Origin: a virus
Direction: 5' to 3' (one strand)
Length of the DNA stretch: 64,000 bases
IMG/VR virus record: IMGVR_UViG_3300028920_000003
The notes beneath the pieces are model-generated. The model did no database searches. It was not told where the DNA came from and saw nothing but the letters and a program-made list of their open reading frames with translations. The position numbers and the translations under genes were made by a program. Each line of letters starts with the position of its first letter. The first letter of the stretch is position 1. Positions 12,893 to 62,744 of the stretch are shown one piece after another.

Positions 12893-12911
12893 AATTTCTA
12901 GATTTTATTTG

Positions 12912-15821: not shown

Positions 15822-16267
15822 TATTCGGGGTAGTCTTTAGAGTGTGGAATAGTCATAGCTATGAACCACGTATCCTCTAAAGCTCTCAAATAATGTACCA
15901 CTCCGGGATCATATACCATTAGGTCTCCTTCTTTCAAAATCTTTCCATTTCGATCATCTGAGGAGCGTACCATAACTGATCCTGAATAAACAATGGCTAT
16001 TTCTTTTTCGTCATGCTTGTGTTCAGGAAGTACACCTCCTGCGGATACGAAAGTTCTTGCAACAGATATAAAAGGAGATGAAAACAATGAATAAGAAAAA
16101 CAGGTTCCATCCTTAATAGGATATTCTACCATTCCTTCACAATCTTCAATCTTTCTTTTATAATCTTCAATTTTTGGAATAGAAGGAAGTAGATTGGTCA
16201 GTTCTTCTAACTGTTTAAATTTACTGTCCGCATCCAACATTTGTTGCCATTTTAAAGTATGAAACAA
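15821..16267 (-). CDS. cupin-domain protein
   Basis: 148 aa. GGVLPEHKHDEKEIAIVYSG matches cupin motif 1, G-x5-H-x-H-x3-E-x6-G, exactly. GDLMVYDPGVVH approximates motif 2. Confidence 0.7.
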   Translation of the reverse strand: MFHTLKWQQMLDADSKFKQLEELTNLLPSIPKIEDYKRKIEDCEGMVEYPIKDGTCFSYSLFSSPFISVARTFVSAGGVLPEHKHDEKEIAIVYSGSVMVRSSDDRNGKILKEGDLMVYDPGVVHYLRALEDTWFIAMTIPHSKDYPE

Positions 16268-17607: not shown

Positions 17608-18630
17608 TTAAGTTAAACTATTATTTTGCTGTTCCTGCACGGAACTAATCTGAAATCCTGTTTGATCCTGAAGTGCAGCATAGGCTAGTTTAACAGCCTT
17701 ATCTACAATATCACGATGTACGGTTGAATCAAGTAAACAATCAAGTCCTGCTGGAAAGTCTAAGAAATAAATCCCATCTATTGTATCATCACTGAGAGCA
17801 TACGGTATCGAAGCTGTCTCAGGTACAATTATAGGTCTTGGTCTACGATCAATGTGCAAATGTACAGTTGTGATGGTAAATGTTCCATCAGTTATGTATT
17901 CATGTTGTTTTTCAGAATCGTCTGCACCGTCAATTCTCCAAATTTTTCTAATAGATGGTTTCTTATATGGATTCCTATAGTTTCCATTATAAAAATCATC
18001 GTCAATCGGATCGACCTCAAGGTCTAGTTTGGCGTTGTTGTAGGTCACAGGGACAGTAGGAGGAGAAACGGGAATCCGATTGTAATAAAAATTACCGCTT
18101 TGAAACTCGATATCTGCCCTTTCGTTACGAAGCTTTAGAATAGGATCAGCAACAATTGTTACACCTGCTTCTGTACCTAAATTTCCCGGAAGTGTTTGAG
18201 GAGATACCGTCAACTTATTGGCGGTAACTCCTATAACACTGTACAGCTTATTATTATTAGTACTAGCTCCCGTAACAGATATTACATCTCCTAAACGAAA
18301 TCCAGCAGTAACAAAACCGTTTCCGGAATGAGTTATACCGTCTGCGACAAACGTAACTTGATCTGTGAGTTGAACTCTAAGCGGAGCGATATAACCGTTT
18401 GGATAGTTTCCAGCAGAAAATGAAGTAAGTGGGATAACCTGTCGTAACTTGGAAATAGCTTTCTTATTCATCTCTTCATTCGAGCTAGAATCTAGGAGTT
18501 CATAAACAATGTCCTCCTGCGCCCGTGTGAGAAATGTAGAAATCTCTTTCGGTACATATCCCGGAGCATCGAAGTTGGTTATACGGTCATAACCAACGTC
18601 AAACTCATATTTCATTTGTTCTGCTGTCAT
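17608..18630 (-). CDS. hypothetical structural protein (head-tail adaptor candidate by position)
   Basis: 340-aa ORF downstream of the capsid-like gene. No diagnostic motif. Confidence 0.4.
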   Translation of the reverse strand: MTAEQMKYEFDVGYDRITNFDAPGYVPKEISTFLTRAQEDIVYELLDSSSNEEMNKKAISKLRQVIPLTSFSAGNYPNGYIAPLRVQLTDQVTFVADGITHSGNGFVTAGFRLGDVISVTGASTNNNKLYSVIGVTANKLTVSPQTLPGNLGTEAGVTIVADPILKLRNERADIEFQSGNFYYNRIPVSPPTVPVTYNNAKLDLEVDPIDDDFYNGNYRNPYKKPSIRKIWRIDGADDSEKQHEYITDGTFTITTVHLHIDRRPRPIIVPETASIPYALSDDTIDGIYFLDFPAGLDCLLDSTVHRDIVDKAVKLAYAALQDQTGFQISSVQEQQNNSLT

Positions 18631-19625: not shown

Positions 19626-21089
19626 TTAAAGGATGATAGGCTTGTAGGTAGCGGTCCTAGTAGGATCGTAAACAATTGATCCACCAGTGTAAGCCCTATG
19701 CTCGGTCCAAGCATCTTTGGGATTACTCATGATTCTGTTGGTTTTACCAATGGTGAAAGGATCACGCAGTCCGGGTTCGTAGCCACGAATGTCTCCAAAC
19801 TTGGCGAGAGCTACCTTCTGTACGTTCGGCTTTCCATCGGAAGTACCCATGTTCAGGATGTCGTAGACACGACTCTCAGCGAGTCCCTGTCCACCGGGAT
19901 AGTAAATCTTATTCCTTGCGAAGTCATCCTTCAGAGCATCATGGACGATGTTCACCTTGATACCGTTGGGACCAATATACTCAAGGAACTGACCACGGAA
20001 TCCCATGACATTTCCACTCTTGGAGTAAATCCTGTAGTTGTCCCTTGCAGGAACATACAGAGTGGTGTAGTCTTCCAGAGCCTCATGGAACTGATACATT
20101 CCCCACTCACCTGTGAGAACAGTCACCTCACGCTGACCCATCACAACCTTACCAACGGTCAGGTCGAGAAGCATCTCAGTGAACTTCTTGATATCAAAGG
20201 AGTTGTAGGTATTGTAGTTGGCAGCTTCCATTTGCTGCTTAATACCAGCACCCATCTGAAGGATACGTCCGGATTTTCCACGCTGCTTGTATGTTCCATC
20301 TTCACTCTTGTTGGAAGTAGCGTATACAAGCAGATGGTTGATCTCATCCTGATACTGCATCTCCAACTCGTATGAACGATAGTCCATCCACGTAGTCATC
20401 ATTTTCTTGGTCATTGGATCAATCCAAGAAAACTTCACGGGACGTTCGATCATGTTACCGGGAATGGTATCCTGCATCCGGATCATGGTCATTGCGTTCA
20501 TCATCTTGTAAGGGAAGGTATAGTGAACTCCACCACCCTTAACTGACAGTTCTTTCTCAACAGGTGAGAAGTCCTTGCTGAAACGCTTTCCGGTTTGTAG
20601 TTCGTCGAAAGGAACAAACAGAGACGCATCTCCTGTGTTCAGACGACATCTGTAACGCCAGAGTCCACCTACATTCACAGGGTCTTCGAGGACCAGAATG
20701 GGATAGATTTCGTTACGCTCTCCAACGATTTGATTCACGTCGGTAAAGTAGGCTTCATGGAAGAAGAGGTAGAACTCTGCAAAGTTCAGACCAGCTCTGT
20801 CGGCTGCTGTGAGAGCAGTTCCAAGAACTACTTCAGCTTTGGCGAGAGGAATATTCTTCTTACCATTGGTAGTGATGTCCCAAGTAAAATCATCATCTGT
20901 TTCCAGAGTCAGGGTCGGGAACTGATTCAAATAAGCATTAACGGTTGCACCAAGATTCGCTTGATGAATCATGGTGGCAACTTTAGACGCTTGTTGAGGC
21001 TCAATCCCGAACCTGTAACCCAAGTGCGACTTGGTTACTAGACCCGTGATGTCCTCTGATTCATAAAGTTGAAATGGTGAAATTCTCAT
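19626..21089 (-). CDS. putative major capsid protein
   Basis: 487 aa, in the canonical order terminase-portal-scaffold-capsid. The size suits an HK97-fold coat with an insertion domain. No profile search was possible. Confidence 0.55.
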   Translation of the reverse strand: MRISPFQLYESEDITGLVTKSHLGYRFGIEPQQASKVATMIHQANLGATVNAYLNQFPTLTLETDDDFTWDITTNGKKNIPLAKAEVVLGTALTAADRAGLNFAEFYLFFHEAYFTDVNQIVGERNEIYPILVLEDPVNVGGLWRYRCRLNTGDASLFVPFDELQTGKRFSKDFSPVEKELSVKGGGVHYTFPYKMMNAMTMIRMQDTIPGNMIERPVKFSWIDPMTKKMMTTWMDYRSYELEMQYQDEINHLLVYATSNKSEDGTYKQRGKSGRILQMGAGIKQQMEAANYNTYNSFDIKKFTEMLLDLTVGKVVMGQREVTVLTGEWGMYQFHEALEDYTTLYVPARDNYRIYSKSGNVMGFRGQFLEYIGPNGIKVNIVHDALKDDFARNKIYYPGGQGLAESRVYDILNMGTSDGKPNVQKVALAKFGDIRGYEPGLRDPFTIGKTNRIMSNPKDAWTEHRAYTGGSIVYDPTRTATYKPIIL

Positions 21090-39212: not shown

Positions 39213-39242
39213 GGAGTGTCCCTTCGGGGATGCTCCTTTTTA
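39213..39242 (+). terminator. rho-independent terminator with UUCG tetraloop
   Basis: GGAGTGTCCC-TTCG-GGGATGCTCC (10 bp, two G:U pairs) followed by TTTTT. It lies inside the N-terminal extension of the ORF-track call 39230-41161. Confidence 0.8.
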
Positions 39243-39262
39243 ACTCTCTAATCTATAAGCTT

Positions 39263-41161
39263 ATGAAAAAGAAAGTGTGGGTCTACGACCTAGAGCAACT
39301 AGAAAACTTTCATTCAGGCGTATTTATTAACAGAGATGATATTGAGGATATAAGAGTATTTGTAATTCACGAAAGCAGAAATGACATTGATGTTTACTTC
39401 GATTTCTTAATGACTGAGGTAGCAGGACTGATTGGATTTAACAATGTAAATTATGATTACCCACTTTTACATTTCTTCATTAACACGATAGATGCGCATC
39501 GTCATGCTGGTGCAAATGTACGTGTAGCTAAGATATTAGAAATGATGCATTGGGAATCACAAAGGATTTTAAAAGAAGAATATTCAGCTATACCGGAGTG
39601 GAAAGAGATGATACCGCAATTAGATTTATTCAGGATACATCACTTCGATAACAAAGCAAAGAGAACTTCCCTTAAGGCTGTACAAATAGCTATCAACTAC
39701 CCAAACGTTCAGGATATGCCATTCGAGCATGACCATTGGGTTACAGAAGATGAGATTCCAGAGATTCTAAGCTATAATCATAATGATACCGCTTCAACTC
39801 ATAAGTTTTATCATTTAAGCGCAGACATGGTAGAATTGCGTAAGATGCTATCTGCAACTTACAATCTGCAACTAAGAAATTATAATGATCCTAAAATCGG
39901 ACAAGAGATTTTCGGTAGACAGATCGCACGAAAGAAGAATGTACACTACAATGCTGTAAAAGATTTACGGACATATCGCAGAGAGATTGATCTTGGCAAA
40001 TGTCTCCTACCTTATATATACTTTGAAAGCAAAGAACTCAGAGAGATACATGACTTCTTCAAAGAAACCACTGTATATACCACTTACAAACCATTTGAGA
40101 AATCAGCAATCTATAAAGGATTCAAGTATGATTTCGGTGTTGGTGGTATTCATGGTTGCATAGAATCAGGAGTGTATAAGTCTACAGAGGATATGCTGAT
40201 CCTCGATATTGATGTAGCAGCATATTACCCTGCTTTGGCTATACAACATGGTTTTTATCCTCAACACCTCGGACAAACATTCTCAGAGGTGTATAAGGAA
40301 TTATTCGATACCAGAATGAAAGCCAAAAAAGAAGGTAATAAGCCGGTAAATTCTGGACTTAAACTAGCATTAAATGGTGTATACGGTAAATCAAATGACC
40401 AGTATTCATTATTTTATGATCCTATGTATACCATGCGAATAACTATCAATGGTCAACTACTGCTGGCTATGCTGTCAGAATGGCTGGTTGATAGTATCAA
40501 GAATCTGACAATGCTTCAGGCCAATACCGATGGTATTACGGTTATGATCCCAAGACAAGATGAAGATGCTGTGAGAAATATCTGTCTTGCTTGGGAAAAG
40601 AGAACAGGGATGGTCCTTGAGTATGCTGAGTACAGTGATATGATTATTAGAGATGTAAATAATTATCTTGCAAGAACAACTGATGGATATATTAAACCTA
40701 AGGGTTGTTTTGAGATTATACCCACGCAGAATGGAGCAGTAGCATACAATAAGAACTGGTCCATGCGTGTAGTCCCTAAAGCACTTCATGCATATTATTT
40801 TGAAGATATACCAATTGAAGATTTTATTCGCAATCATGATAATATCTATGACTTTGGAATTGGATTTAGAGCGAGAAAAGATTGGAACATTGTTTACAGT
40901 TATATTCATAACCAGAGACAGGTCGACGACGTACAGCAACGTACAATTAGGTATTATATGTCCCGTACAGGTGGTTCACTCACGAAAAGACATAAAGAAG
41001 ATGGTAGAATAATATCATTGGAAGCAGGTAAAACGTGTAAGATATTCAACAGGTATTATGAAGCACCGATGGAAGAGTATGGTATAGATTATAACTATTA
41101 TATCGCAAGAGCAAACAGAATCAGGTATGCTGTCGATGACGGTCAACGAAAACTGTTCTAA
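39263..41161 (+). CDS. DNA polymerase, family B
   Basis: Start moved to ATG 39263 (MKKKVWVYD), downstream of the terminator. Exo motifs: YDLE, NNVNYDYPLL, YNHND. Polymerase motifs: DIDVAAYYPALA (motif A, DxxSLYPS-like), KLALNGVYGK (motif B, KxxxNSxYG-like), ANTDGI (motif C, DTD). Confidence 0.8.
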   Translation: MKKKVWVYDLEQLENFHSGVFINRDDIEDIRVFVIHESRNDIDVYFDFLMTEVAGLIGFNNVNYDYPLLHFFINTIDAHRHAGANVRVAKILEMMHWESQRILKEEYSAIPEWKEMIPQLDLFRIHHFDNKAKRTSLKAVQIAINYPNVQDMPFEHDHWVTEDEIPEILSYNHNDTASTHKFYHLSADMVELRKMLSATYNLQLRNYNDPKIGQEIFGRQIARKKNVHYNAVKDLRTYRREIDLGKCLLPYIYFESKELREIHDFFKETTVYTTYKPFEKSAIYKGFKYDFGVGGIHGCIESGVYKSTEDMLILDIDVAAYYPALAIQHGFYPQHLGQTFSEVYKELFDTRMKAKKEGNKPVNSGLKLALNGVYGKSNDQYSLFYDPMYTMRITINGQLLLAMLSEWLVDSIKNLTMLQANTDGITVMIPRQDEDAVRNICLAWEKRTGMVLEYAEYSDMIIRDVNNYLARTTDGYIKPKGCFEIIPTQNGAVAYNKNWSMRVVPKALHAYYFEDIPIEDFIRNHDNIYDFGIGFRARKDWNIVYSYIHNQRQVDDVQQRTIRYYMSRTGGSLTKRHKEDGRIISLEAGKTCKIFNRYYEAPMEEYGIDYNYYIARANRIRYAVDDGQRKLF

Positions 41162-50231: not shown

Positions 50232-52235
50232 ATGGAAGAGACTGAAAGAGAAGAATTCATGCGTCAGACTTCGGAGTCTATCAATGAGGCAGAAGCAGAA
50301 GCAGAAGCAGATGAAACCCAAAATACTTATGAGCCTCTTACTGTAGAAGCTCTGAGAGAAATCGTTAATGATTTAAGAAGTAATAATCCAACTCCAAATG
50401 ACGTTGTGACACATTATGAAACCACAGGAAACTTGGTTGTCGATACTGATAGTACAACAGGTATAACATACACGACAAGCAATAATTCCACAACCGGAAC
50501 AACGTATGTTTCTGTTCCTCCTACCACTGATCAAGTTACAGTGAATGTTGAGGGAACTCAAGTTCCACCAGCAGAACCTATACCTATTCCTGAAGAAAGA
50601 CGTAAGAAGATCAGAGAAGACAGGCTTAGAATGAAGTTGCATTTACAGAATGAGAGTCTTGAGTATAAGAGAAGCGTTTTTGCTAAAGAAATGGTCATTA
50701 CCAAAAATGATCTGATCATTTTAGCCGATCCCAATGCAGGTGAACACTGTTATAATTTCTTCCATTTTGATGTAGAAGGTGAGCATAAAGTAAAAGACTG
50801 TTTCTTACGATATCATAGTTATACTAGGCGAAGGAGAAGCGGAGACGAAAGTGTCTTTGTAGAAAATGCATTTGTTTTTGATAAAAACATGAAACGTCTT
50901 GTAGTTAACAGAGATGGGATAAGGAACAAAATATCAGGACAAGAGAAGATCAGGACTCGTAGAGATATGACAAGAATCTGGAATTATCAGATCAGTTATG
51001 CGTACAAGGAAAGAAAAAGAGATGTTGACTCAGACAGTTTTATCATAATTGATAAAGAAGAATTCATAAATTCCAGAGGTAGAAAATGGAAGCTTAAACG
51101 AAGGGAAAACTTAAGCTATTCTAATATCAAACTTGTCAGGCAGAAGTTCATCGAAAGGTTTATTGAGGTAGAACAGTTTGTGAAGAGACTTAATGAAATT
51201 GTCTCTAAAGCACTTCCTCCTGATGAGTTTGATATTTTCTATGTCTTTGGAAGGCCGAGTAACGATATTTTCAGCAGACTTACTAGTACCTATTGTTTGT
51301 TAATGAAATTCTCTAATGTCACTATCACAAATTCTATTGAAATGAAACATGAGATAGAAGAATTGATGGTAACTACTCAGGGTAATCATTATCAGGGAAT
51401 GGTACATAAAATGATTGGAGGTCTCAGTGGAATGAGAATGGCTTTTACTCCTGAAGATGCTCGTGCAAACTATCGACACTCTCATTTAACAAGCGGTCTT
51501 TCTAACTTCACAAGCTTCTGTACAGGAGGTGTGTCGTATAGTAGTATGGACAGAGAAGAACTAAATGAATTTGAAGTTCATGAGATAATCTTCAGAATCT
51601 ACAATTTTATACAATGGGAATCACTGGAAGGTGGTCCTCATTATAAAATGGAGAATATCAAAAATTTCGGAAGTCGTGTTACAATTGAGAAGAATATTAT
51701 AGGAAAAGATAGATATGTACCAGAAGAATATCTCACAGAATTGATTGGACATATCAACGCTACTCCCTTAAAATTCGCCTATTTTTCTGAATGCTTTTCT
51801 CTTACTAATCAAGGTGGAGTATTAAGGTTTGTTGTTGACTATGATAAGTTCTACGATAAATTCATAGAGCTTTTTGACAACAATACTATAAGAGATATAG
51901 GAAGAAGATACAGTTTGCCTTTGTACACTCGTAAGATGGAACTGAAAGAGTTTTATTCAGTCGGAAGTGAAACAGAACTCATACCTAGTTTAATTCTTGC
52001 AGATGCACAGGAGAAGCTAAAAAATCTTGTTCCTGTCTATTTGAACGGTAAATACGTCCGTCCTAGACTGACTAATTTCAATCCGACTTCTGCAATAGAA
52101 GGTATGAGATTTTGTCCTGAACCGAATATCATGAGAGAGATAGCACAGTACATATTATTCAAATTAACAGATAAACTTGAAGAACATGGGAACACCAGCG
52201 AAAGTAGAGAAGAGAGCCGAGTATCCGCTATATGA
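50232..52235 (+). CDS. large hypothetical protein, first gene of the JAB/E1 cassette
   Basis: Start moved to ATG 50232 (MEETEREEF...), downstream of the terminator. 667 aa with an acidic and Thr-rich N-terminus. No motif recognised. Confidence 0.5.
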   Translation: MEETEREEFMRQTSESINEAEAEAEADETQNTYEPLTVEALREIVNDLRSNNPTPNDVVTHYETTGNLVVDTDSTTGITYTTSNNSTTGTTYVSVPPTTDQVTVNVEGTQVPPAEPIPIPEERRKKIREDRLRMKLHLQNESLEYKRSVFAKEMVITKNDLIILADPNAGEHCYNFFHFDVEGEHKVKDCFLRYHSYTRRRRSGDESVFVENAFVFDKNMKRLVVNRDGIRNKISGQEKIRTRRDMTRIWNYQISYAYKERKRDVDSDSFIIIDKEEFINSRGRKWKLKRRENLSYSNIKLVRQKFIERFIEVEQFVKRLNEIVSKALPPDEFDIFYVFGRPSNDIFSRLTSTYCLLMKFSNVTITNSIEMKHEIEELMVTTQGNHYQGMVHKMIGGLSGMRMAFTPEDARANYRHSHLTSGLSNFTSFCTGGVSYSSMDREELNEFEVHEIIFRIYNFIQWESLEGGPHYKMENIKNFGSRVTIEKNIIGKDRYVPEEYLTELIGHINATPLKFAYFSECFSLTNQGGVLRFVVDYDKFYDKFIELFDNNTIRDIGRRYSLPLYTRKMELKEFYSVGSETELIPSLILADAQEKLKNLVPVYLNGKYVRPRLTNFNPTSAIEGMRFCPEPNIMREIAQYILFKLTDKLEEHGNTSESREESRVSAI

Positions 52236-52236
52236 A

Positions 52237-53373
52237 ATGGAGGAGAAAGGTAGTCTGATTCTACCACCTCATATCATATCGCAGATTACATTCCTTCATG
52301 CCCGATGTGGCAACACTGAATGGTCCGGAATGCTGCTTTATGATGTATTAAAGGGTAATCCTTCCAAACCCGAAGATTTCAAATTGGAAGCAAAACACAT
52401 CTTTCTAATGGACATTGGCACAGCAGGATCAACTAGTTATGAGACTGATGGTGATATTGTCGATCTGTTTGATGAGATTCCGGAAGCTATGGAAATGAAA
52501 TTAGGTCATATTCATACGCATCACAGTGGTAAAGCATATTTCTCAGGAGTTGATATGTCAGAACTTCAGGACAATGTAGATAAACATAACTACTACCTGT
52601 CTCTGGTTGTCAGTTTCGATGGAAATTATGCTGCTAAAGTAGTTTTCTTAAGTGATATGCATATCACATCCAAGATGAATTTCATCGACGATGCTGGTCA
52701 AACCAAGCATTTCAAGAAAGCTACTATGGAAAAACACATGGTCGTGATTAACATGAAGATCATGTATTCTGAGATGGGAGGATTTTTCTCTACTCGTCTG
52801 GATACTATTGTCAAGAAAGCTGACGCTGAGAAGAAGAAAGCTCAAGCTTGGAAGTATCCGGGATATCAGGGAGGATATAACCAACATCATACCAGTTGGA
52901 ACTCAGAAAAACAGCGTCATCTTCCTGCTCATCGTCCTATCAACAGCAAAATCATTCCTGATAAGATGACAAGCTGGGAAATCGAAGGTCTGACAAAGAA
53001 CATTCTGATGTTTGATACTGATCTGAAAACAGAAAGCAATGTATATAAGATTCTTCATGATATCGCTAACCAGATGAGTGATGATGAAACTGCTTCAGAC
53101 CTGTATTATGATTATCTTCTGAATCATATCGAGAAAGTGATTGATTCCTATTTCGATCAGCAACTGGAACCTGATGAGTATATCACCGTAATAAAAGAGG
53201 TGATAATGTGTATCAAAAAGTATGAGGGACTTCCTATACTTGCTGATGTAGTCAGGAATCTTGAAGAGACTTTCGATCATTTCATACTCGGATACGACAG
53301 TTCTGATGATGATAACGATGATGAGAAGAGTATTGCAGATCAACTTGAAAAGATGGAAAGGGAAATGAGATGA
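52237..53373 (+). CDS. JAB/MPN (JAMM) metalloprotease-domain protein
   Basis: Start placed at ATG 52237, 1 nt after the upstream stop (the ORF track starts at 52177). Exact JAMM motif H-T-H-HSGKAYF-S-GV-D (HxHx7SxxD, nt 52513-52554) with an upstream Glu in NTEWSG. The C-terminal ~230 aa are unassigned. Confidence 0.75.
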   Translation: MEEKGSLILPPHIISQITFLHARCGNTEWSGMLLYDVLKGNPSKPEDFKLEAKHIFLMDIGTAGSTSYETDGDIVDLFDEIPEAMEMKLGHIHTHHSGKAYFSGVDMSELQDNVDKHNYYLSLVVSFDGNYAAKVVFLSDMHITSKMNFIDDAGQTKHFKKATMEKHMVVINMKIMYSEMGGFFSTRLDTIVKKADAEKKKAQAWKYPGYQGGYNQHHTSWNSEKQRHLPAHRPINSKIIPDKMTSWEIEGLTKNILMFDTDLKTESNVYKILHDIANQMSDDETASDLYYDYLLNHIEKVIDSYFDQQLEPDEYITVIKEVIMCIKKYEGLPILADVVRNLEETFDHFILGYDSSDDDNDDEKSIADQLEKMEREMR

Positions 53374-54059
53374 TAGATGTGAAAAAATCAAGATTCCGTG
53401 ATGCTTCATGGTTTGAGAAGATGGATAAGTTCGTCATTCCTATCATTATCGGAGGTGCAGGTGGAATTGGTAGCTGGCTGACTTTATTTCTGTCAAGAAT
53501 GCTACCACCGTCCTCATACATCATACTATATGACTTCGATAAAGTTGAAGAAGTAAATATGGCTGGACAACTTTTCAGAATCGAAGATATTGGAAAGCTC
53601 AAAGTTACTGCTATGAGAGATATAGTAAAGGACTTTGCTGGATATGAGAGAATTACTATGATGCCTGACAGGTATGACAGTGAATCTCTCAAAAGTCCTG
53701 TCATGTTTTCATGCTTTGATAATATGGAAGCAAGAAAGGTGATGTTTGAGAACTGGTTAACAGAAGCTGAGAAATATCCTGATTCTATCTTTATTGATGG
53801 TAGGTTAAATGCAGAGCAGTTTCAGGTGTTTTATATAACTCTTGAGTGGGCGAAAGCCTATCAGGATAAACACCTGTTCAGTGATTCTGAAGTAGAAGAT
53901 ACAAATTGCTCCTACAAGCAGACTACTCACTTTGCAGCAGCTATCGCAGCAAAGATGGTTCAGGGTTTTACCGGATTTCTGGATGATACCTATGAACTTC
54001 CCTTCAAGTATGAAGAGATAGGTCCGTTGTTCTTTAATGAAATTGAGACTTATGGATGA
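53370..54059 (+). CDS. E1-like adenylyltransferase (ThiF/MoeB/Uba family), minimal 229-aa form
   Basis: IIIGGAGGIGSWL (Rossmann GxGxxG), LYDFDKVEEVNMAGQ (DxDxVxxxNxxxQ) and CFDNMEARKV (DN..R). Its ATG overlaps the JAB stop (ATGA). Confidence 0.8.
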   Translation: MIDVKKSRFRDASWFEKMDKFVIPIIIGGAGGIGSWLTLFLSRMLPPSSYIILYDFDKVEEVNMAGQLFRIEDIGKLKVTAMRDIVKDFAGYERITMMPDRYDSESLKSPVMFSCFDNMEARKVMFENWLTEAEKYPDSIFIDGRLNAEQFQVFYITLEWAKAYQDKHLFSDSEVEDTNCSYKQTTHFAAAIAAKMVQGFTGFLDDTYELPFKYEEIGPLFFNEIETYG

Positions 54060-57046: not shown

Positions 57047-57850
57047 ATGCAAAATGAACAAGTTTATTGGGAAGCAAACAAGAGAATCGCTCTTGCTGCT
57101 CCTTTACCTGTAAGGACTTCCACATATAGTCCTGTTTCTCATGCTGAGATAATCGAAGCAATCAGAACTAATGCTCAAACCAACAACCTGAAAATTGTAC
57201 GTGACAGAATGTACACAAACAGGTTTGGTACGAGAGTTACCGGATTCTTTGATGTCGAAGATGCAACAGACTTTGGAAATGTCCACGGTCTGAAAATGAT
57301 GTTTGGCTACCGTAACAGCTACGACAAATCAATGAGCGTAGCCTTTGTAGCAGGAGCATCTGTGTTTATCTGCGGAAATGGAATGATCAGTGGTGATCTG
57401 ATGGCTTTCAAACGCAAACACACCGGAACCGTTGCAGAAGAATTGAATGAAAAAATTCAGGTCGGAGTAGACCGAATGAGAGATGATTTTGCAAAGCTCA
57501 ATTTGGAGGTGGATGTAATGAAGAACTATTCTCTTACACCACGCCAGAAAGCTGAAATTCTGGGAGTTATGTATTTCGAGAAGAACATGGTTACTCCCAC
57601 TCAGTTGAGTATTGTGAAAAACGAACTCACAAACAGCGAACATTTCAGGGAAGACAATGCTTGGTCCCTGTATAATAATGTAACGGAAGCTCTGAAAAAG
57701 AGTCATCCGATTGACATTATCAGAGATCATATCAAACTGCATGGATTCATGCAGGAGCTGGTAGGAATTGCTCCGGAAGAGGTGGGAGAAACTGTTGAAG
57801 CTGCACCCGAAGCAGAGACATCTGATGCACCACCCGAAACTGAAGGATAA
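57047..57850 (+). CDS. DUF932-like (phage/plasmid-like) protein
   Basis: 267 aa. GYRNSYDKSMSVAFVAGASVFICGNGMI resembles the NSHDGS....G...VC.NG core I recall for the DUF932 family. Assignment is from memory of the family. Confidence 0.45.
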   Translation: MQNEQVYWEANKRIALAAPLPVRTSTYSPVSHAEIIEAIRTNAQTNNLKIVRDRMYTNRFGTRVTGFFDVEDATDFGNVHGLKMMFGYRNSYDKSMSVAFVAGASVFICGNGMISGDLMAFKRKHTGTVAEELNEKIQVGVDRMRDDFAKLNLEVDVMKNYSLTPRQKAEILGVMYFEKNMVTPTQLSIVKNELTNSEHFREDNAWSLYNNVTEALKKSHPIDIIRDHIKLHGFMQELVGIAPEEVGETVEAAPEAETSDAPPETEG

Positions 57851-58526
57851 GTTCCTAGACTTATTGGGAGTGGAGTGGTTTAATGTCATTGAACCATATT
57901 TAGATACAAAAGATTTTGGAATAATCACTGTTGAGTTATTTAAAGAAAGAAGATTATATACCGTATATCCAGAACAAGGCTCTGATTTACTTTTCAAAGC
58001 ATTCAGAACCACTCCTCTTTCAAAAGTCAAAGTTGTGATACTTGGTCAAGACCCGTATCATGACGGTTCTTTTGATGGTTTTGCTTTTTCAAATAAAGGT
58101 AAAACCGGAAAACTTTCTCCTTCCTTGGTAAATATCCTCAAAGAGATCGAATCAGACGTATATGAAGGACTTATGCTTGATCATGACCCTGACCTAGAAA
58201 GGTGGGCGAAACAAGGCGTATTACTTATAAATACGGCTCACACGGTCCGTAAAGGAGAAGCTGGTTCACACCTGCATCTATGGGACATGTTTACAGCAAG
58301 AGTTATCCACGTACTTGTGAACAGACATCAACCTATAGTGTGGATGTTATGGGGATCGAAAGCAAAAAAACATCTTGAAGGTAGAACTTTATCAAAAGAT
58401 CACCTCAAGTTGACTTGTCCACATCCTTCCCCTTTCTCAGCTTATTCCGGATTCTTTGGGTGTAAGCATTTTAGTCAGGCAAATACATTTTTACTAGAAC
58501 ATAACATTGAACCGATTAAATGGTAA
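57825..58526 (+). CDS. ung: uracil-DNA glycosylase, family 1
   Basis: VVILGQDPYH (water-activating loop), GFAFS, LLINTAHTV and CPHPSPFSAY (HPSP leucine-loop motif). Start moved to the in-frame ATG at 57825. Confidence 0.85.
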   Translation: MHHPKLKDKFLDLLGVEWFNVIEPYLDTKDFGIITVELFKERRLYTVYPEQGSDLLFKAFRTTPLSKVKVVILGQDPYHDGSFDGFAFSNKGKTGKLSPSLVNILKEIESDVYEGLMLDHDPDLERWAKQGVLLINTAHTVRKGEAGSHLHLWDMFTARVIHVLVNRHQPIVWMLWGSKAKKHLEGRTLSKDHLKLTCPHPSPFSAYSGFFGCKHFSQANTFLLEHNIEPIKW

Positions 58527-59587: not shown

Positions 59588-59950
59588 ATGGCGGAAGAAG
59601 TAGAACAAGGTGCTGTCGAAGTACAAGGCGGTGCATTCAAAGATTCCTTGTATCGCAATAATGCGAAGATCAGGAAGGACCGTGCAGACTCTATCATTGA
59701 GGACGCACAGTTAATTTACAAGCGTGAAATCGAAGACCTTGAGGTCGAGATGAAGCGTATGTTGAGGGAACAGGACAATATGCTGGATTTGTCTCCAACA
59801 AATGCTATGAACCTGACTCTTGCGAGTGATTTTGACTCAAAAGAGTATGTAGCAAAAGACCTTGAACTTGGTGTGAAACTTCGCAATCTTGAGATCAAAC
59901 TTGAAATTGCAAGAAAGAGGTATACTTACCTGTTTGGAGGAACTGCGTAA
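59588..59950 (+). CDS. coiled-coil hypothetical protein
   Basis: 120 aa, charged and helical. Its stop overlaps the start of the vWA gene by 1 nt. Confidence 0.45.
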   Translation: MAEEVEQGAVEVQGGAFKDSLYRNNAKIRKDRADSIIEDAQLIYKREIEDLEVEMKRMLREQDNMLDLSPTNAMNLTLASDFDSKEYVAKDLELGVKLRNLEIKLEIARKRYTYLFGGTA

Positions 59951-60807
59951 TGGGTAGAGGTTCATATTCGTACAGCACTCGAATGGAGAGAGCTGCGGTA
60001 ACAGGGATGATGACTAATTCTCTGACAGAAAACTTCAAGAGTAAAGCAGTTACTCGTGAGATGACTACCGTAGGATTGGAATATAGAGAGTCCAGAGATT
60101 CAGAAGAACATCCTAAATCTGTTGCAATCATCGTAGCATTGGATGTTACAGGATCAATGGGATCAGTTCCAGATCATATGATCAAAGAAGGTCTTCCTAC
60201 TATGATGGACACCATTATTAAGTCTGGTGAACCCGATCCACAGGTTCTATTTGTGGGAATCGGTGATCATGTATATGATCGTTCTCCCTTGCAGGTTGGA
60301 CAATTCGAGAGTTCAGATGAACTTTTGGACAAGTGGCTACAAGATACCTACCTTGAAGGTGGTGGAGGCGGTAACGATGGTGAGAGCTATATGTTAGCTT
60401 GGTACTTCGCTGCCCGTCATACTCAAATTGATTGTTTTGAAAAGCGTGAACAGAAGGGATTTCTCTTTACAATAGGTGATGAGAAGAATCTTCCTGAAGT
60501 TCCCGGTCCTGTTCTCAAAGGTATTATGGGAAAAGGTCAATATGATGATACAGTGAAATCTTCTGATCTTCTGGAAGAAGCAAGGAAGATGTACCATGTA
60601 TATCATATTCATATCTCTGAAACCCATTCTGGAAAACGACAGGATGTTGTAAGTCACTGGAAAGAACTCTTAGGAGACAATTTGATTGTTGTTCAGAGTT
60701 CTGATCATGTGAGTGGGATTATTGCTTCAATTGTCTCAGGTAAGGACACCTCTGATAGTAAAGAAGATGATCCCGAAACAGATGTTCCAAACGAAGAAAT
60801 GCTTTAA
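59950..60807 (+). CDS. von Willebrand factor A (vWA) domain protein
   Basis: 285 aa. AIIVALDVTGSMGS carries a MIDAS-type D-x-(S/T)-x-S motif after a beta-strand. GIGD and TIGDE acidic strands come later. Confidence 0.6.
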   Translation: MGRGSYSYSTRMERAAVTGMMTNSLTENFKSKAVTREMTTVGLEYRESRDSEEHPKSVAIIVALDVTGSMGSVPDHMIKEGLPTMMDTIIKSGEPDPQVLFVGIGDHVYDRSPLQVGQFESSDELLDKWLQDTYLEGGGGGNDGESYMLAWYFAARHTQIDCFEKREQKGFLFTIGDEKNLPEVPGPVLKGIMGKGQYDDTVKSSDLLEEARKMYHVYHIHISETHSGKRQDVVSHWKELLGDNLIVVQSSDHVSGIIASIVSGKDTSDSKEDDPETDVPNEEML

Positions 60808-60809
60808 TT

Positions 60810-61016
60810 ATGGGAAATCCAAGCTATTCAGAACAGCAAGAGCTGATCAAGAAAGACTCGAAACGCTTTATGGAAGAATTTACCGCATGGTATAATACCA
60901 TAGAGTACGAGAACGATGACATTGAAGCAGCTACTCTCAGAGAAATTATGGCTGACTGTACTTATCGTCTTCAACTTGTTTTGGAGATGATTGAAGAAAG
61001 AAAAGGTTCTGTATGA
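60810..61016 (+). CDS. small hypothetical protein
   Basis: 68-aa ORF. Its stop overlaps the next ATG by 4 nt. Confidence 0.45.
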   Translation: MGNPSYSEQQELIKKDSKRFMEEFTAWYNTIEYENDDIEAATLREIMADCTYRLQLVLEMIEERKGSV

Positions 61017-62185
61017 GAGCAGCCGTTATCGGACTCGGTTTCGGAGATGAGGGGAAAGGTATGGTAGTATCATACCTTTCTTCTATTCTTAAAAAACCAC
61101 TTGTCGTAAGATACTCAGGAGGACATCAAGCTGGTCATGCAGTAGTTGATGAGAGAAATCGTAAACACTCCTTTGTTAATTTCGGTAGTGGAACTTTACA
61201 AGGATGTCCTACTTACTGGTCTAAGCATTGCACTTTTGAACCTGTTGGATTTCTAAATGAATTAGCTGATCTAGTAGATTTAATGAAAGAAGACTTTGAT
61301 GGTATCAAAGTTTACTTGCATGAAGATTGTCCAGTAACTACCCCCTATGACATAAACTTTAATCAGAAAGCAGAAGTTGAGAAGATGCATGGAACCTGCG
61401 GAGTTGGATTTGGTGAAACTCTTGAAAGAGAGAGTAACCATTTTCATCTAAGAGTTTCAGACCTCTTTAATCCTTCTGTTCTGGTGATCAAGCTTGAGCA
61501 GGTAGCTAAGTATTATGGTCTGTTCTACAAATCTCCTGTAGATACAACAGACTTTTTAGAAGCTGTCAGTGTGTTGAACTCGGAATCTAAGTTTCCTAAC
61601 GAAGTTATTACAGTTGTTGGGGATACTGACGTTCCATCTTATCCGAATACTATATATGAAGGCTCACAAGGTCTACTCCTCGATCAGGATATTGGATTCT
61701 TTCCACACGTTACACGTTCAAATGTGGGACGGAAGCGATTGGATAACTTTATATACCACTACGATGAAGTGTGGTATGTTACAAGAGCGTACCAAACCCG
61801 TCATGGAGCAGGACCAATGACCAATGAGGATGAACCCTTTACACTTATAAATCTTGAGACTGAAACAAACGAAGAAAATAAGTGGCAGGGACCATTTCGT
61901 AGAAGTATTCTGGACCTTGATCTATTGAAGTATGCTATAAAACATGACAGGAAGAATATCAAAAGAGTTCAGGAAGAACGTCTGGTAATAACCTGTCTGG
62001 ATCAAATGGTACAGTGGATATACAAAGAGGACGGTGATCTACATACCTGTGAGAATGAAACAGATTTTGTGGCAAATGTTGCAAAGTCTCTTGGGTTCTC
62101 AGAAAATATCTATCTTAGCCGTTCTCCAAAAAACGAACTTGAAAAATGGAAAGGAGGAAATTATGATGATAAAGAGAAAGTTTGA
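61013..62185 (+). CDS. adenylosuccinate synthetase family protein (PurA/PurZ-like, divergent)
   Basis: 390 aa. GLGFGDEGKGMVV (PurA P-loop GDEGKG), RYSGGHQAGHAV (GGHNAGHT), YEGSQGLLLDQDIGFFPHVTRSN (EGAQG.LLDIDHGTYP.VTSS) and RAYQTRHGAGP (KAY.TRVG.GP). The Asp-binding GATTGRRRR loop is replaced by NKWQGPFRR. Confidence 0.75.
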   Translation: MRAAVIGLGFGDEGKGMVVSYLSSILKKPLVVRYSGGHQAGHAVVDERNRKHSFVNFGSGTLQGCPTYWSKHCTFEPVGFLNELADLVDLMKEDFDGIKVYLHEDCPVTTPYDINFNQKAEVEKMHGTCGVGFGETLERESNHFHLRVSDLFNPSVLVIKLEQVAKYYGLFYKSPVDTTDFLEAVSVLNSESKFPNEVITVVGDTDVPSYPNTIYEGSQGLLLDQDIGFFPHVTRSNVGRKRLDNFIYHYDEVWYVTRAYQTRHGAGPMTNEDEPFTLINLETETNEENKWQGPFRRSILDLDLLKYAIKHDRKNIKRVQEERLVITCLDQMVQWIYKEDGDLHTCENETDFVANVAKSLGFSENIYLSRSPKNELEKWKGGNYDDKEKV

Positions 62186-62744
62186 ACATTTTGATGTACT
62201 GTCAATCGGTACACAATTAGAAATTGTAGGTGTGGTCTATGGATCAGAAGAAGAAAATATCATCATAGTTCTTCCTGATGAGTCCATACTCGAACATATG
62301 CAAGTTTTGTTCCCTACTCTCGATGAGTGGCAACAGATTGTTCGTCAATCTGACCTCAAAGAGACTGAAGGAATGGTTAAAGGCAAAAAGGTTATCCTGC
62401 GAAAGTCTACCCGACAGATCGAACAAAAAACGATGTGGGAGGTGTTTCGCAGAGACGATTTCACCTGTAGATACTGTAATGCGGATAATGTTCCAATGAC
62501 TGTAGACCATGTGGTTCTATGGGAGGAAATGGGTCCAAGTATTCCTGTCAACCTCATTACGAGTTGTAAAAAATGTAACAACGCAAGAGGTAACATGCAA
62601 TACGAAGAGTGGCTCAAGAGTCCGTATTACTTGTCAAAGGTTCCCTTACTCCCGGTAAATGTTCTTGCAGCAAATGCCAGAGCTGCAACAGAGATACCAA
62701 GGACGAAAGAGTTCCTTTTGCGCACCGTGAAGCGCAGCCGATAA
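62163..62744 (+). CDS. HNH endonuclease
   Basis: Start moved to ATG 62163 (MMIKRKFEHF...). CRYCNADNVPMTVDHVVLW......NLITSCKKCNNARGN is a His-Me finger with Cys pairs. Confidence 0.7.
   Translation: MMIKRKFEHFDVLSIGTQLEIVGVVYGSEEENIIIVLPDESILEHMQVLFPTLDEWQQIVRQSDLKETEGMVKGKKVILRKSTRQIEQKTMWEVFRRDDFTCRYCNADNVPMTVDHVVLWEEMGPSIPVNLITSCKKCNNARGNMQYEEWLKSPYYLSKVPLLPVNVLAANARAATEIPRTKEFLLRTVKRSR

Follow-up and report, generated by a model that had tools for sequence, protein, structure and literature searches.

A third, mostly phage-borne branch of the adenylosuccinate synthetase family encoded with an upstream vWA/MIDAS-fold partner

We analysed a window of 64,000 nucleotides of DNA from a crAss-like phage (IMG/VR record IMGVR_UViG_3300028920_000003) and found that its plus-strand open reading frame at 61013-62185 belongs to a third branch of the adenylosuccinate synthetase (AdSS) family, very widespread and mostly phage-borne, which is neither PurZ nor a captured host PurA. 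What is new here is a gene for a vWA/MIDAS-fold protein upstream of the AdSS gene, usually placed after a gene for a helical protein of about 120 residues; these conserved upstream partner genes (59588-60807) are the decisive feature of the locus. The branch is thus a concrete, testable module of two to three genes with its own pocket signature and its own vWA/MIDAS partner. Its present labels, 'adenylosuccinate synthetase' or '2-aminooxy adenylosuccinate synthetase' in annotation pipelines and PHROGs, invite false calls of Z genomes or of simple purine AMGs.

The product of 61013-62185, 390 residues from an ATG start, is a true adenylosuccinate synthetase relative, with a fold match far beyond chance. 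It matches PF00709 in Pfam (E=7e-43, residues 4-312), phrog_1211 among the PHROGs (E=1.9e-51) and 22 PurA entries among the PDB sequences at E<=5e-8. Its AlphaFold model (pLDDT 90.5, pTM 0.91) was aligned with PurA structures by Foldseek at E~1e-23 and a TM of about 0.7, and the C-terminal 80 residues, which lie outside the Pfam match, are confidently modelled. All the PurA motifs that an earlier note on this DNA had listed for the frame are present: the P-loop GFGDEGKG (61037-61060, residues 9-16), which carries the PurA-type catalytic Asp (Asp12), SGGHQAGH (residues 35-42), EGSQGLLLDQDIGFFPHVTRSN (residues 216-237) and TRHGAGP (residues 262-268). The catalytic residues D12, K15, H42 and Q219 correspond to D13, K16, H41 and Q224 of E. 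coli. The same note had described a divergent phage homologue with altered IMP- and aspartate-contacting segments, and this description held. GTCGVGFGE occupies residues 127-135 (61391-61417), and a remodelled 'aspartate loop', NKWQGPFRR (61877-61903, residues 289-297), replaces E. coli GATTGRRRR, with T300 changed to W, T301 to Q, R303 to P and R304 to F, and R305 kept. The equivalent of the guanine-binding TKLD of PurA is ITCLDQ (61988-62005); among the ligands of the GTP base, Asp333 and a Ser414-like residue persist, and Cys stands in place of Lys331. In E. coli numbering, the signature changes are N38Q, T129C, S240R, V273H, F278M, T301Q, R304F and K331C (Q39, C129, R235, H264, M269, Q292, F295 and C328 in the protein of the window), to which R131V, R143H, T300W and R303P are added.

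Relatives of this protein were found on at least 549 IMG/VR contigs, in about 200 cluster-C mycobacteriophages, in Rhizobium, Vibrio and crAss-like phages and on some bacterial chromosomes; the carriers span phages of 40-350 kb and several bacterial phyla. They are monophyletic in an NJ tree. The alignment and phylogeny against PurA and PurZ sets, which the earlier note had proposed as a check, placed the protein with neither set and in this clade of its own. Mean identity is 42% within the clade versus 28% to 59 cellular PurAs; a recent host-derived purA was rejected on the separate clade, on this 28% identity and on a search that found no near DNA match in any phage. The signature is nearly invariant: Q38, C129, R240, H273, M278, Q301, F304 and C331 are 98-100% conserved across 120 relatives, and the cellular members of the clade share them. 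In the aspartate loop, Q301 is found in 120/120, F304 in 118/120 and R305 in 117/120 sequences, position 300 is aromatic and position 303 is variable; at the guanine site, D333 is kept in 118 and C331 in all of the 120. The position of the catalytic Asp13 is Asp in each of the 117 clade members aligned there. To read these changes we used the residue roles (IMP-phosphate ligands and the equivalents of R303 and R305) of the contact table of H. pylori AdSS (PMC11571797, Table 3). PurA binds the IMP 5'-phosphate through Asn38, Thr129, Thr239 and the Arg143 of the partner subunit; of these the clade protein retains Thr239 alone and has Q38, C129 and H143 in the other places, and R240 is a new invariant residue. 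Among the ligands of the 2'-OH and of aspartate (Arg303, Arg305, Thr300/Thr301 and Val273), only Arg305 is kept, the others being P303, W300, Q301 and H273. Judged by the alignment, the clade appears to retain the machinery with which PurA uses GTP to activate a 6-oxopurine nucleotide (Asp13, Lys16, His41, Gln224, Arg305 and Asp333), and a near-invariant set of its own replaces most PurA contacts to the IMP 5'-phosphate, the ribose 2'-OH and the aspartate carboxylates.

PurA itself (E. coli 1ADE/1CG0, H. pylori 6ZXQ) has the same fold, shares the P-loop GDEGKG, His41, Gln224, Thr239, Arg305 and Asp333, and at 28% identity is the closest group by sequence outside the clade. In contrast to PurA, the clade protein is about 40 residues shorter, is paired with a vWA protein rather than standing alone, and fails the equivalog cut-offs, scoring 101.5 bits against 395.55 for TIGR00184, 118.6 against 402 for NF002223 and 116.8 against 445 for NF010355.

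The cassette of the window is encoded on the plus strand and starts with the gene for the helical protein of about 120 residues (cluster c2, 59588-59950). Its stop codon overlaps the start (TAATG) of the gene for the 285-residue vWA/MIDAS-fold partner (cluster c1, 59950-60807), an assignment that rests on a fold match and on the MIDAS residues. A plus-strand frame of 68 aa (60810-61016) then separates the vWA and AdSS genes, and its stop overlaps the AdSS start (ATGA). This small frame is lineage-specific, being found only in the closest relatives (70 aa in locus L009, 67 aa in L010), and gave no significant family match in Pfam or PHROG. At most other loci the vWA stop overlaps the AdSS start directly, a 4-nt overlap being the modal spacing of the IMG/VR loci. 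The c2 gene precedes the vWA gene in 49/81 loci and in 43 of the 69 dereplicated groups; in other lineages a J-domain/kinase-like protein replaces the c2 protein, and some sub-lineages add R2K ATP-grasp peptide ligases and kinase or J-domain proteins to the cassette. An alignment of 39 c2 sequences, chromosomal copies from Flavobacterium, Chryseobacterium and Electrothrix among them, has a mean column identity of 52%, and the protein had no Pfam match even at E<1 and no PHROG or significant PDB match.

The linkage of the vWA and AdSS genes is nearly absolute. The vWA gene lies upstream of the AdSS gene in 80/80 non-truncated viral loci of IMG/VR, and on the same strand in 79 of the 80. The partner gene was also found upstream at 19 cellular loci; counted by clade members, it accompanies 18 of 22 in cellular genomes versus 0/57 ordinary purA genes (Fisher p=2.7e-14). 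Both genes occur in the same phage records for Mycobacterium (200), Rhizobium (10) and Vibrio (6), and all cluster-C mycobacteriophages with an AdSS gene belong to the vWA-linked branch. Apparent 'fusions' in high-GC actinomycete loci were set aside, as naive ORF calling had produced spurious long ORFs there. At the 50% level, the partner family falls into 1,950 clusters. The partner of the window falls into phrog_2971, annotated 'unknown', and gave no Pfam match even at E<1 and nothing significant in a sequence-profile search of the PDB. Its AlphaFold model (pLDDT 77.8), compared with the PDB by Foldseek, gave 125 matches at E<=1e-3, all of them vWA domains, with NorD, Rea1-MIDAS and integrin I-domains at the top. 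The MIDAS residues D65-x-T67-x-S69, E145-S146 and D177 are invariant. The extreme N-terminus reads M-G-x-x-x-[Y/W/F]-[S/D/N]: of 150 diverse representatives, 134 begin with MG, and 126 of these 134 have an aromatic residue at position 6. This peptide is conserved from crAss-like phages to mycobacteriophages despite an overall identity of about 30%.

We then looked at the surroundings of the cassette. Within 2.2 kb downstream of it, this phage carries genes for Ro60/TROVE and tRNA-Arg; an Rfam search over the 21-kb locus, aimed at a Y RNA close to the Ro60 gene, yielded the tRNA alone. By raw count, genes for RtcB, Rnl, HAD_SAK, Rv2179c-exoRNase or TROVE lie within 10 kb in 24 of 69 dereplicated loci, and tRNA or tmRNA genes within 10 kb in 29/60 loci, eight of which hold arrays of 12-32. 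The association with RNA repair and tRNA genes thus concerns a third to half of the loci, and it is purely positional, a matter of raw counts. NUDIX genes are also among the neighbours. The cassette is frequently found among the genes of phage and bacterial islands for RNA repair (RtcB, Rnl, Pnkp, Ro60/TROVE with Y RNA, tRNA arrays), and Ro60 itself contains a vWA domain. An AdSS-type enzyme as part of a described RNA-repair system was not found in the literature searched (PMC7824862), nor was any link of AdSS with vWA proteins, RNA repair, crAss-like phages, Bxz1 or deaminase immunity. Elsewhere the neighbours are metabolic (an anaerobic RNR in Vibrio phage Va1, PRTase/NMNAT in a Rhizobium phage, NrtR/Prs in Flavobacterium), and one bacterial copy sits among toxin-antitoxin genes.

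On balance, and with somewhat better than even confidence, we propose that the cassette encodes a two-protein, GTP-dependent module for amination of purine nucleotides, in which the vWA protein is a partner and which sustains adenine supply and translation rather than modifying DNA. The AdSS subunit and the vWA protein would act as a complex. With GTP as donor, the AdSS subunit would phosphorylate O6 of a hypoxanthine nucleotide, and an amine would then displace the O6 phosphate. This amine is most likely still L-aspartate, because the pocket still has an anion-binding Arg305 and a new Arg240. The reaction would give an adenylosuccinate-like product, which host PurB could convert into an adenine nucleotide. 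The altered sugar-phosphate pocket suggests that dIMP or another inosine nucleotide, and not IMP, may be preferred. Since the residues that recognise IMP and those that recognise aspartate are both changed, both substrates are uncertain. The vWA/MIDAS partner may serve to tether, gate or direct the enzyme, by analogy with the vWA adaptors of other P-loop NTPases. In an infected cell under host attack, the cassette might keep adenine-nucleotide supply and translation going. We infer this role in supply and translation, and no modification of phage DNA, because the cassette is repeatedly found within tRNA arrays and beside RtcB/Rnl ligases, Ro60/TROVE, exoribonuclease and NUDIX genes, that is, in the tRNA/RNA-repair islands that phages use against host attacks on translation. 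The neighbouring RNR, PRTase/NMNAT and NrtR/Prs genes would also fit a purely metabolic role. If the substrate or the nucleophile proves to be new, it would widen the purine-nucleotide chemistry deployed in the conflict between phage and host. Published biochemistry for any clade member was not found in the literature searched; culturable carriers exist (Bxz1/I3, Va1 and Rhizobium phages), and the question is therefore directly addressable.

The earlier note had entertained three identities for the enzyme, and they fared differently. Its headline candidate was a PurZ-type enzyme, which would make the precursor of 2-aminoadenine from dGMP and aspartate for a phage DNA with Z instead of A. The shared fold and overall chemistry speak for this identity, as does the short protein of 390 residues. 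The PurZ/PurZ0 enzymes of known structure (phiVC8 6FM1, S-2L 7ODX, Gordonia phage 7VF6) are likewise phage-encoded and shorter than bacterial PurA, and PurZ lacks the Arg303 contact that reads the 2'-OH (PMC8342488), a contact also lost here. The name of the PHROG family, '2-aminooxy adenylosuccinate synthetase', points the same way, but this family lumps all phage AdSS homologues. PurZ and PurZ0 are, however, defined by Ser (rarely Gly) in place of the catalytic Asp13 of PurA (PMC12884076; bioRxiv 10.1101/2025.10.22.683976), and the P-loop Ser is present in 100% of 147 phage PurZ/PurZ0 sequences (PMC12884076). The window protein has Asp at this diagnostic position, where the PurZ enzymes of S-2L and phiVC8 have S, and it retains the GTP-type Asp333. 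It scores 31.2 bits with NCBIfam NF038379 (amino_Aden_PurZ) against a cut-off of 300, reaches PurZ chains only at E=0.27-1.9 in a phmmer search of the PDB, and finds the PurZ/PurZ0 structures at Foldseek ranks 34-43, behind 33 canonical PurA chains. With 14-18% identity to the window protein, PurZ branches apart from the clade in the NJ tree and is the most distant group both by sequence and by fold. The ~200 cluster-C mycobacteriophages with an enzyme of the same clade are not in the PurZ group of Poubanne et al. Phage records with weak or PurZ-type AdSS matches, PurZ phages included, are without the vWA partner. A Z cluster is recognised by a DatZ HD dATPase, by MazZ/DUF550 or DutZ/DmtZ and usually by a PolA-type DpoZ. 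Pfam scans confirmed the observation of the earlier note that the window holds neither an HD dATPase nor a MazG gene, and the search of the rest of the genome that it had proposed gave the same answer in the downstream genes and contig stretches scanned. The scan took in the plus-strand module, most minus-strand ORFs and eight genes (8 kb) downstream, with two tail-fibre ORFs excluded, together with precomputed Pfam annotation of two stretches of the source contigs. These parts make up about 73 kb of a genome of ~99 kb, and they held no HD, MazG, DUF550, dUTPase, NDT or PolA domain, and thus no gene for DatZ, MazZ, DUF550, DutZ, DmtZ or PolA-type DpoZ. A look-up of the 1,392-aa tail-fibre protein, aimed at lengthening the contig upstream, returned no record. 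On the P-loop Asp, the PurZ HMM, the distance in sequence and fold and the absence of Z-cluster genes from the parts scanned, membership in PurZ was rejected, and we give a PurZ-type function next to no chance. The second identity, a plain salvage AMG, is weakened by the vWA partner, the equivalog scores and the replaced contacts. On this account a stand-alone PurA would turn IMP, aspartate and GTP into adenylosuccinate and boost AMP, ATP and dATP, the vWA neighbour being unrelated or regulatory only. In its favour, none of the catalytic residues has been lost, nor has the GTP-specific Asp, canonical PurA is the closest fold, some isolates and Flavobacterium have nucleotide or NAD metabolism genes next to the cassette, and PurZ still uses aspartate without Arg303. 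Yet the linkage to the vWA gene extends across phages and bacterial phyla and is absent from the ordinary purA genes, stop and start codons overlap, the scores lie far under the equivalog cut-offs, and three of the four side-chain ligands of the IMP phosphate are replaced, as is the Arg143 that comes from the dimer partner; we consider this account unlikely, if worth keeping in mind. The third identity, a ligase with a new substrate or in a new context, remains. AdSS paralogues of the ToyG type, from 7-deazapurine (toyocamycin) biosynthesis, act on a non-standard 6-oxopurine nucleotide, and the fold thus tolerates new substrates; FolE and QueC/D/E, the 7-deazaguanine genes, were not seen in the window.

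Three further readings would give the pair a different task from the two-protein aminating module proposed above. Deaminase-based immune systems are documented, and the pair could serve as a counter-defence by re-amination, removing or recycling the deaminated adenine nucleotides (IMP, dIMP, products of ITP/dITP) that arise from RADAR, Cad1 or Kongming dITP signalling; it would thereby replenish adenine nucleotides or destroy the precursor of the signal. Conversion of a 6-oxo into a 6-amino purine fits, loss of the 2'-OH ligand Arg303 would permit deoxy substrates, and the cassette's surroundings are accessory islands of the conflict type that hold RNA-repair genes or, for the bacterial copy mentioned above, toxin-antitoxin genes. 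This reading is pure inference, however; it requires host PurB and leaves the vWA partner unexplained, 'adenylosuccinate' is absent from the deaminase-immunity literature searched, and PADLOC matched no member of the cassette to a known component of a defence system, so that we regard it as improbable. A bolder reading, to which we give a very small chance, is that the activated 6-oxopurine nucleotide is coupled to an amine other than aspartate, for example the N-terminal glycine of the partner, to yield a protein-N6-AMP. Mutagenesis in E. coli assigned aspartate recognition to V273, T300, T301, R303 and R131, and in the clade a less polar set of invariant residues stands in place of these determinants. 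The conserved M-G-x-x-x-aromatic start of the partner, the obligate linkage, and the R2K ATP-grasp peptide ligases and kinase/J-domain proteins of sub-lineage cassettes would also agree with it. But Arg305, together with basic side chains at positions 240 and 306, still points to an anion such as aspartate as the substrate, and such a ligation has no known precedent. In a small test of 68 pairs, residues 3-9 of the partner showed no excess of mutual information with the AdSS columns of the active-site loop (z about 0). The columns that ranked top (E. coli 140/145, 223/226 and 244) probably mark a split between sub-clades. The specific form of this idea, in which the GTP-activated C6 of an inosine nucleotide is coupled within tRNA/RNA-repair islands to a macromolecular amine, most plausibly the N-terminal glycine of the vWA protein, is a long shot; if true, a protein with an N6-linked AMP bearing a free 5'-phosphate and 3'-OH would represent a novel form of protein-nucleotide conjugation. 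Finally, the AdSS-fold protein could be a non-metabolic GTPase, regulatory or chaperone-like, with the vWA protein as its adaptor. Pairs of a P-loop NTPase gene and a vWA gene are a recurrent architecture, the best PDB folds of the partner, NorD and Rea1-MIDAS, are adaptors of AAA+ motors, and the MoxR-vWA pairs (NorQ/NorD, CbbQ/CbbO, BchI/BchD) likewise have a vWA gene with an intact MIDAS beside a P-loop NTPase. Unlike in those pairs, the NTPase here has the AdSS fold and is not an AAA+ protein, the vWA gene comes first, a conserved N-terminal peptide is peculiar to the partner, and the cassette contains no AAA+ MoxR gene. A mere GTPase, besides, would not need the residues of purine chemistry, and the Asp13 base, the His41 acid and Gln224 are invariant, which makes this reading extremely improbable.

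Elsewhere in the window, at 39230-41161, lies the frame that the earlier note had taken for a family B polymerase. This assignment is weakly supported: the frame had no Pfam match, and its one PDB sequence match, to E. coli Pol II, covers residues 352-438 at E~1e-4.

We confirmed that the gene at 61013-62185 (+), which starts with ATG and encodes a 390-aa product, is a homologue of adenylosuccinate synthetase (AdSS), as the earlier note had proposed: Pfam PF00709 (Adenylsucc_synt) matches residues 4-312 with E=7e-43, phrog_1211 matches with E=1.9e-51, and solved adenylosuccinate synthetases superpose, in a fold search at E~1e-23, on a structure model built from 42 relatives (pLDDT 90.5, pTM 0.91). 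Every motif previously read from the sequence was found in its place, namely the P-loop GFGDEGKG (residues 9-16), SGGHQAGH (35-42), GTCGVGFGE (127-135), EGSQGLLLDQDIGFFPHVTRSN (216-237), TRHGAGP (262-268) and NKWQGPFRR (289-297). The further proposal that the protein is PurZ-like, that is, an enzyme of the phage 2-aminoadenine (Z) DNA pathway, did not hold. The catalytic Asp13 of PurA (E. coli PurA numbering, used for all substitutions) is Ser in 147/147 phage PurZ/PurZ0 sequences (PMC12884076), and in phiVC8 PurZ, whose F295 and Y298 contact the adenine of ATP, reverting Ser14 to Asp abolishes substrate selectivity (bioRxiv 10.1101/2025.10.22.683976). This diagnostic position is Asp in the window AdSS and in 117/117 aligned relatives, and Ser in the S-2L and phiVC8 PurZ. 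The window protein scores 31.2 bits with the NCBIfam PurZ model (cut-off 300) and is 18% identical to PurZ; PurZ chains are reached only at E=0.27-1.9 in a PDB sequence search and at ranks 34-43 in the fold search, with 33 canonical PurA chains ahead of them. In addition, the guanine-specific Asp333 is retained in the triphosphate pocket, within ITCLDQ. As the earlier note had observed for HD dATPase and MazG, we detected no HD-domain, MazG, DUF550, dUTPase-like, NDT or PolA protein in the plus-strand module or in most minus-strand ORFs of the window; extending the search, as had been suggested, gave none in the eight genes downstream or in the precomputed annotations of two contig stretches. 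We therefore rejected a PurZ identity, to which we leave hardly any probability. In the census of Poubanne et al., only 147 of 481 phage PF00709 proteins are PurZ/PurZ0, and the others served as an outgroup, without discussion (PMC12884076).

The protein is not an ordinary PurA either. PurA equivalog models give it 101-119 bits, against cut-offs of 395-445, and the substrate contacts are exchanged. Our alignment took in 120 database relatives, each of 350-400 aa and 45-70% identical, alongside E. coli PurA, two PurZ and three homologues from isolate phages. The catalytic set D13, K16, H41, Q224, T239, R272, R305 and D333 is invariant in the aligned clade members. The IMP- and aspartate-contacting segments do differ from PurA, as first noticed from the sequence. 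A second set of positions departs from PurA, mostly in a near-invariant manner: N38Q, V273H, T301Q and K331C are each present in 120/120 relatives, S240R in 119/120, and T129C, F278M and R304F in 118/120. R131 is changed to V, I or L, R143 to H, Y or N, and T300 to an aromatic residue, while R303 is variable among the relatives and is Pro in the window AdSS. According to the contacts of H. pylori AdSS (PMC11571797 Table 3), given here as E. coli equivalents, the 5'-phosphate of IMP is bound by N38, T129, T239 and R143 of the other subunit, the 2'-OH is held by R303 together with the V273 and G127 backbone, the aspartate-site anion is held by R303 and R305, and K331 lies in the guanosine pocket. 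Read against this table, the alignment counts indicate that residues assigned to the chemistry are retained but that those predicted to read the sugar-phosphate and the amino acid are systematically swapped for another, equally conserved set.

These exchanges mark a distinct lineage. With PurZ as the root, neighbour-joining gathers the 43 sequences that carry the H273+Q301 signature into a single group with no canonical PurA within it; placed in this way against PurA and PurZ sets, as had been advised, the window AdSS falls outside both. Mean identity to the window AdSS is 42% for the clade, 28% for 59 canonical PurAs and 18% for PurZ. By tblastn against 50,697 phage records, the clade is found at 30-36% identity in 201 Mycobacterium phages of cluster C (Bxz1/I3-like), 10 Rhizobium phages and 6 Vibrio phages, and IMG/VR, scanned with a sequence pattern, yielded at least 549 viral contigs (about 5-357 kb) with a member. 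When one genome was scanned per prokaryotic species, most hits were ordinary purA (about 30% identity), and about 23 were cellular clade members, from Bacteroidota, Actinomycetota, Proteobacteria, Planctomycetota, Chloroflexota and Saccharibacteria. We are practically certain that the window AdSS belongs to a distinct clade, linked to a vWA protein, and is not PurZ. Genes of this clade already bear the label 'PurA-like' in hundreds of phage records; in the literature searched, we found no paper that characterises the clade or notes its signature residues, its pairing with a vWA gene or its location in tRNA/RNA-repair islands. What is new here is an AdSS-family enzyme with an apparently remodelled substrate pocket and an obligate partner.

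ORFs were called and clustered in 80 IMG/VR loci and the source contig (81 loci). A cluster of ~290-aa proteins is present in 80/81 loci, the lone missing locus being truncated at the AdSS start. The gene for this partner precedes AdSS and shares its strand in 79/80 loci, most commonly with a 4-nt stop/start overlap; larger gaps are occupied by a small ORF or a GIY-YIG homing endonuclease. In 49 loci it is itself preceded by a gene for a ~120-aa protein, whose place is taken in another sub-lineage by a ~295-aa protein that gives weak DnaJ and 'kinase' signals, an R2K ATP-grasp gene then following AdSS. The window carries the 120-aa protein (59588-59950, +), the 285-aa partner (59950-60807, +), a lineage-specific 68-aa ORF (60810-61016, +) and AdSS, with the stop/start overlaps TAATG and ATGA. 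Among cultured phages, the partner occurs in records that also bear the clade AdSS (200 Mycobacterium, 10 Rhizobium, 6 Vibrio) and is absent from Acinetobacter, Salmonella, Listeria and Staphylococcus phage records, whose AdSS hits are weak or PurZ-type. It is directly upstream of AdSS in Rhizobium phage TM3_3_6 and Vibrio phage Va1, and only a 112-aa ORF separates the two genes in mycobacteriophage I3. In cellular genomes, it lies upstream of 18/22 signature-bearing AdSS genes versus 0/57 ordinary purA (Fisher p=2.7e-14); of the 4 exceptions, two are truncated by the edge of the locus, and one of the two Saccharibacteria loci (L099), to judge by clustering, does carry the partner. The clade AdSS is thus obligately linked to a vWA/MIDAS protein.

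The nature of the partner emerged from its structure. Pfam gave no match even at E<1, a PDB-sequence profile search found nothing, and its PHROG family is of 'unknown function'. Its AlphaFold model (pLDDT 77.8) has 125 PDB matches at E<=1e-3, every one a vWA domain, headed by NorD (NorQ/NorD system), the MIDAS domain of Rea1 and integrin I-domains; among viral proteins, the uncharacterised mycobacteriophage orthologue matches best. The MIDAS residues D65-x-T67-x-S69, E145-S146 and D177 are invariant. The family comprises 1,950 clusters at the 50% level, with 782 at E<=1e-30; of the best 150 representatives listed, nearly all stand alone, at about 250-360 aa, and none is long enough for an AdSS fusion. 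The partner is more conserved than AdSS (55-80% identity among the relatives listed), and its extreme N-terminus reads M-G-x-x-x-[Y/W/F]-[S/D/N]: 134/150 diverse representatives begin with MG, 126/134 of these with an aromatic residue at position 6, and the motif is kept at about 30% overall identity (MGGGRF in Rhizobium, MGGATW in Vibrio, MGSGAW in mycobacteriophage I3). The cluster-C orthologue of Mycobacterium phage Sauce (BFVD A0A3G3M5V4) is annotated with 595 aa, about twice the usual length, which may reflect fusion to the upstream gene or an error of annotation.

We annotated the recurrent neighbours of the cassette (the ~120-aa, partner and AdSS genes) by Pfam, apart from GIY-YIG endonucleases and an ATP-dependent DNA ligase, assigned by eye. 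They include RtcB, an Rnl-type RNA ligase with an OB domain, the HAD domain of 'Swiss Army Knife RNA repair proteins', an Rv2179c-like 3'-5' exoribonuclease, TROVE/Ro60, NUDIX, R2K ATP-grasp, RecA-like and gp32-like proteins and HNH endonucleases. At least one RNA-repair-type gene lies within 10 kb of the cassette in 24/69 groups dereplicated at 90% identity, and tRNA/tmRNA genes in 29/60 loci; as raw counts with no matched background rate, these make the association only suggestive. Eight loci, for example L018, L035 and L050, have the cassette within arrays of 12-32 tRNAs. Elsewhere its setting is an anaerobic RNR (Vibrio phage Va1), PRTase and NMNAT/NUDIX (Rhizobium phage), NrtR and Prs-like PRTase (Flavobacterium) or a toxin-antitoxin-rich region with TPR and DnaJ proteins (Ca. 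Electrothrix).

The composite explanation that we favour, with slightly better than even confidence, is a vWA-linked AdSS pair carrying out GTP-driven amination of a hypoxanthine nucleotide in a supply or translation role; its mechanistic part is much less certain. The enzyme would use GTP to phosphorylate O6 of the nucleotide, and an amine would then displace the phosphate. Arg305, a basic residue at 306 and the new Arg240 point to an anionic amine such as aspartate, whose use persists in PurZ despite the loss of Arg303. Because the 5'-phosphate and 2'-OH ligands are exchanged, the substrate probably differs from IMP in PurA in its sugar-phosphate part, or in how that part is held; the Arg143 that PurA borrows from its dimer partner is gone here. 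By analogy with vWA adaptors of other P-loop NTPases, the vWA protein is probably bound to the enzyme and serves to tether, gate or target it. From its genomic setting, the pair may help to maintain the supply of adenine nucleotides, or translation, in a cell that the host is attacking, and a role in DNA modification is unlikely.

Other readings explain part of these data. A stand-alone PurA-type auxiliary metabolic gene is an outside possibility, against which stand the vWA linkage, the low HMM scores and the replaced contacts. Somewhat less probable is counter-defence by re-amination of deaminated adenine nucleotides, with which the chemistry and a possible deoxy substrate are compatible, but for which PADLOC and the literature searched offered no direct support. 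The conserved N-terminus of the partner and the loss of aspartate-reading residues would fit a ligase that employs a new nucleophile, for instance the N-terminal glycine of the partner; a small co-variation test gave this no support and we consider it improbable. A non-metabolic GTPase-adaptor pair would leave the invariant purine-chemistry residues unexplained, and is very improbable.

The surroundings of the cassette vary between lineages. In those without the 120-aa protein, a kinase or J-domain-like gene precedes the vWA gene: I3 gp270 (L008 457-1587) is a genuine protein kinase (Pkinase E=8.7e-9), with a polynucleotide kinase also upstream, and c3-cluster proteins (e.g. L080 7422-8309; L092 3964-5010) combine an HPD-containing J-domain-like N-terminus with a kinase-like PHROG hit. 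This arrangement resembles vWA-kinase modules such as the TerY-P triad. Chromosomal copies are found in Ca. Electrothrix scaldis (L090, CP138355.1, 2976935-2997798), where a TPR protein and a 398-aa protein lie between the vWA and AdSS genes and DnaJ and VapBC/PIN toxin-antitoxin genes adjoin, and in Chryseobacterium and Flavobacterium (L093/L094), the latter with the full three-gene cassette after NrtR-type Nudix and Prs-like PRTase genes. Suppressor-type tRNAs (anticodon TTA 'tRNA-Stop', L036 8221-8294; CTA 'tRNA-Pyl', L018 16766-16841) and phage-encoded tmRNAs adjoin the cassette in related loci (L015, L018, L020, L036), a possible sign that those phages reassign stop codons or rescue translation. 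An HNH endonuclease gene (62163-62744, +) overlaps the 3' end of AdSS in the window, and in L032, L037, L041, L070 and L077 GIY-YIG/HNH homing endonucleases either separate the vWA and AdSS genes or come directly after the two; the cassette is thus a frequent landing site for mobile endonucleases. Next in the window comes a 551-aa Ro60/TROVE orthologue (PF05731 E=7.6e-15, weak Ro60-vWA signal, phrog_850 'RNA-binding protein'), which starts at 62793 and runs off the window at 64000 (L001, the locus of the window phage, 11781-13436). Behind it (L001 13767-14389) come a gene-free gap of ~550 nt and a tRNA-Arg(TCT), the latter about 900 nt further on; the gap could harbour a Y-RNA-like partner, but in the 21-kb locus Rfam found only the tRNA.

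The window divides into a structural module on the minus strand (1-33.4 kb) and a replication module on the plus strand (33.6-64 kb). A major capsid protein (19626-21089, -; PF23898 Crass_capsid), a ring-protein ORF (17608-18630, -; PF25710 CrAss_Ring_3_4), the 98.9-kb metagenomic contig that encodes AdSS, a giant 5,701-aa ORF downstream of the window on that contig (L001 18099 onward) and the absence of any close DNA-level relative among GenBank phages identify an uncultured crAss-like phage. Its putative DNA polymerase (39230-41161, +), earlier assigned to family B, is very divergent: Pfam finds nothing, and its sole PDB sequence match is that of a short stretch (residues 352-438) to E. coli Pol II, a family-B enzyme (E~1e-4). 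A gene with a JAB/MPN-like HxHxxxxxxxSxxD motif, spotted by eye (52177-53373, +), overlaps one for a ThiF/E1-like protein (53370-54059, +; PF00899 E=8.5e-13), possibly a ubiquitin-like conjugation/deconjugation pair in the replication module. Further along, 57047-58526 (+) encodes a DUF932 protein (PF06067) and, behind it, a member of the uracil-DNA-glycosylase superfamily (PF03167 E=3.4e-14), which may bear on DNA base content or repair. A cupin-domain protein (15821-16267, -; PF07883 E=2.4e-7) is encoded within the structural/lysis module.
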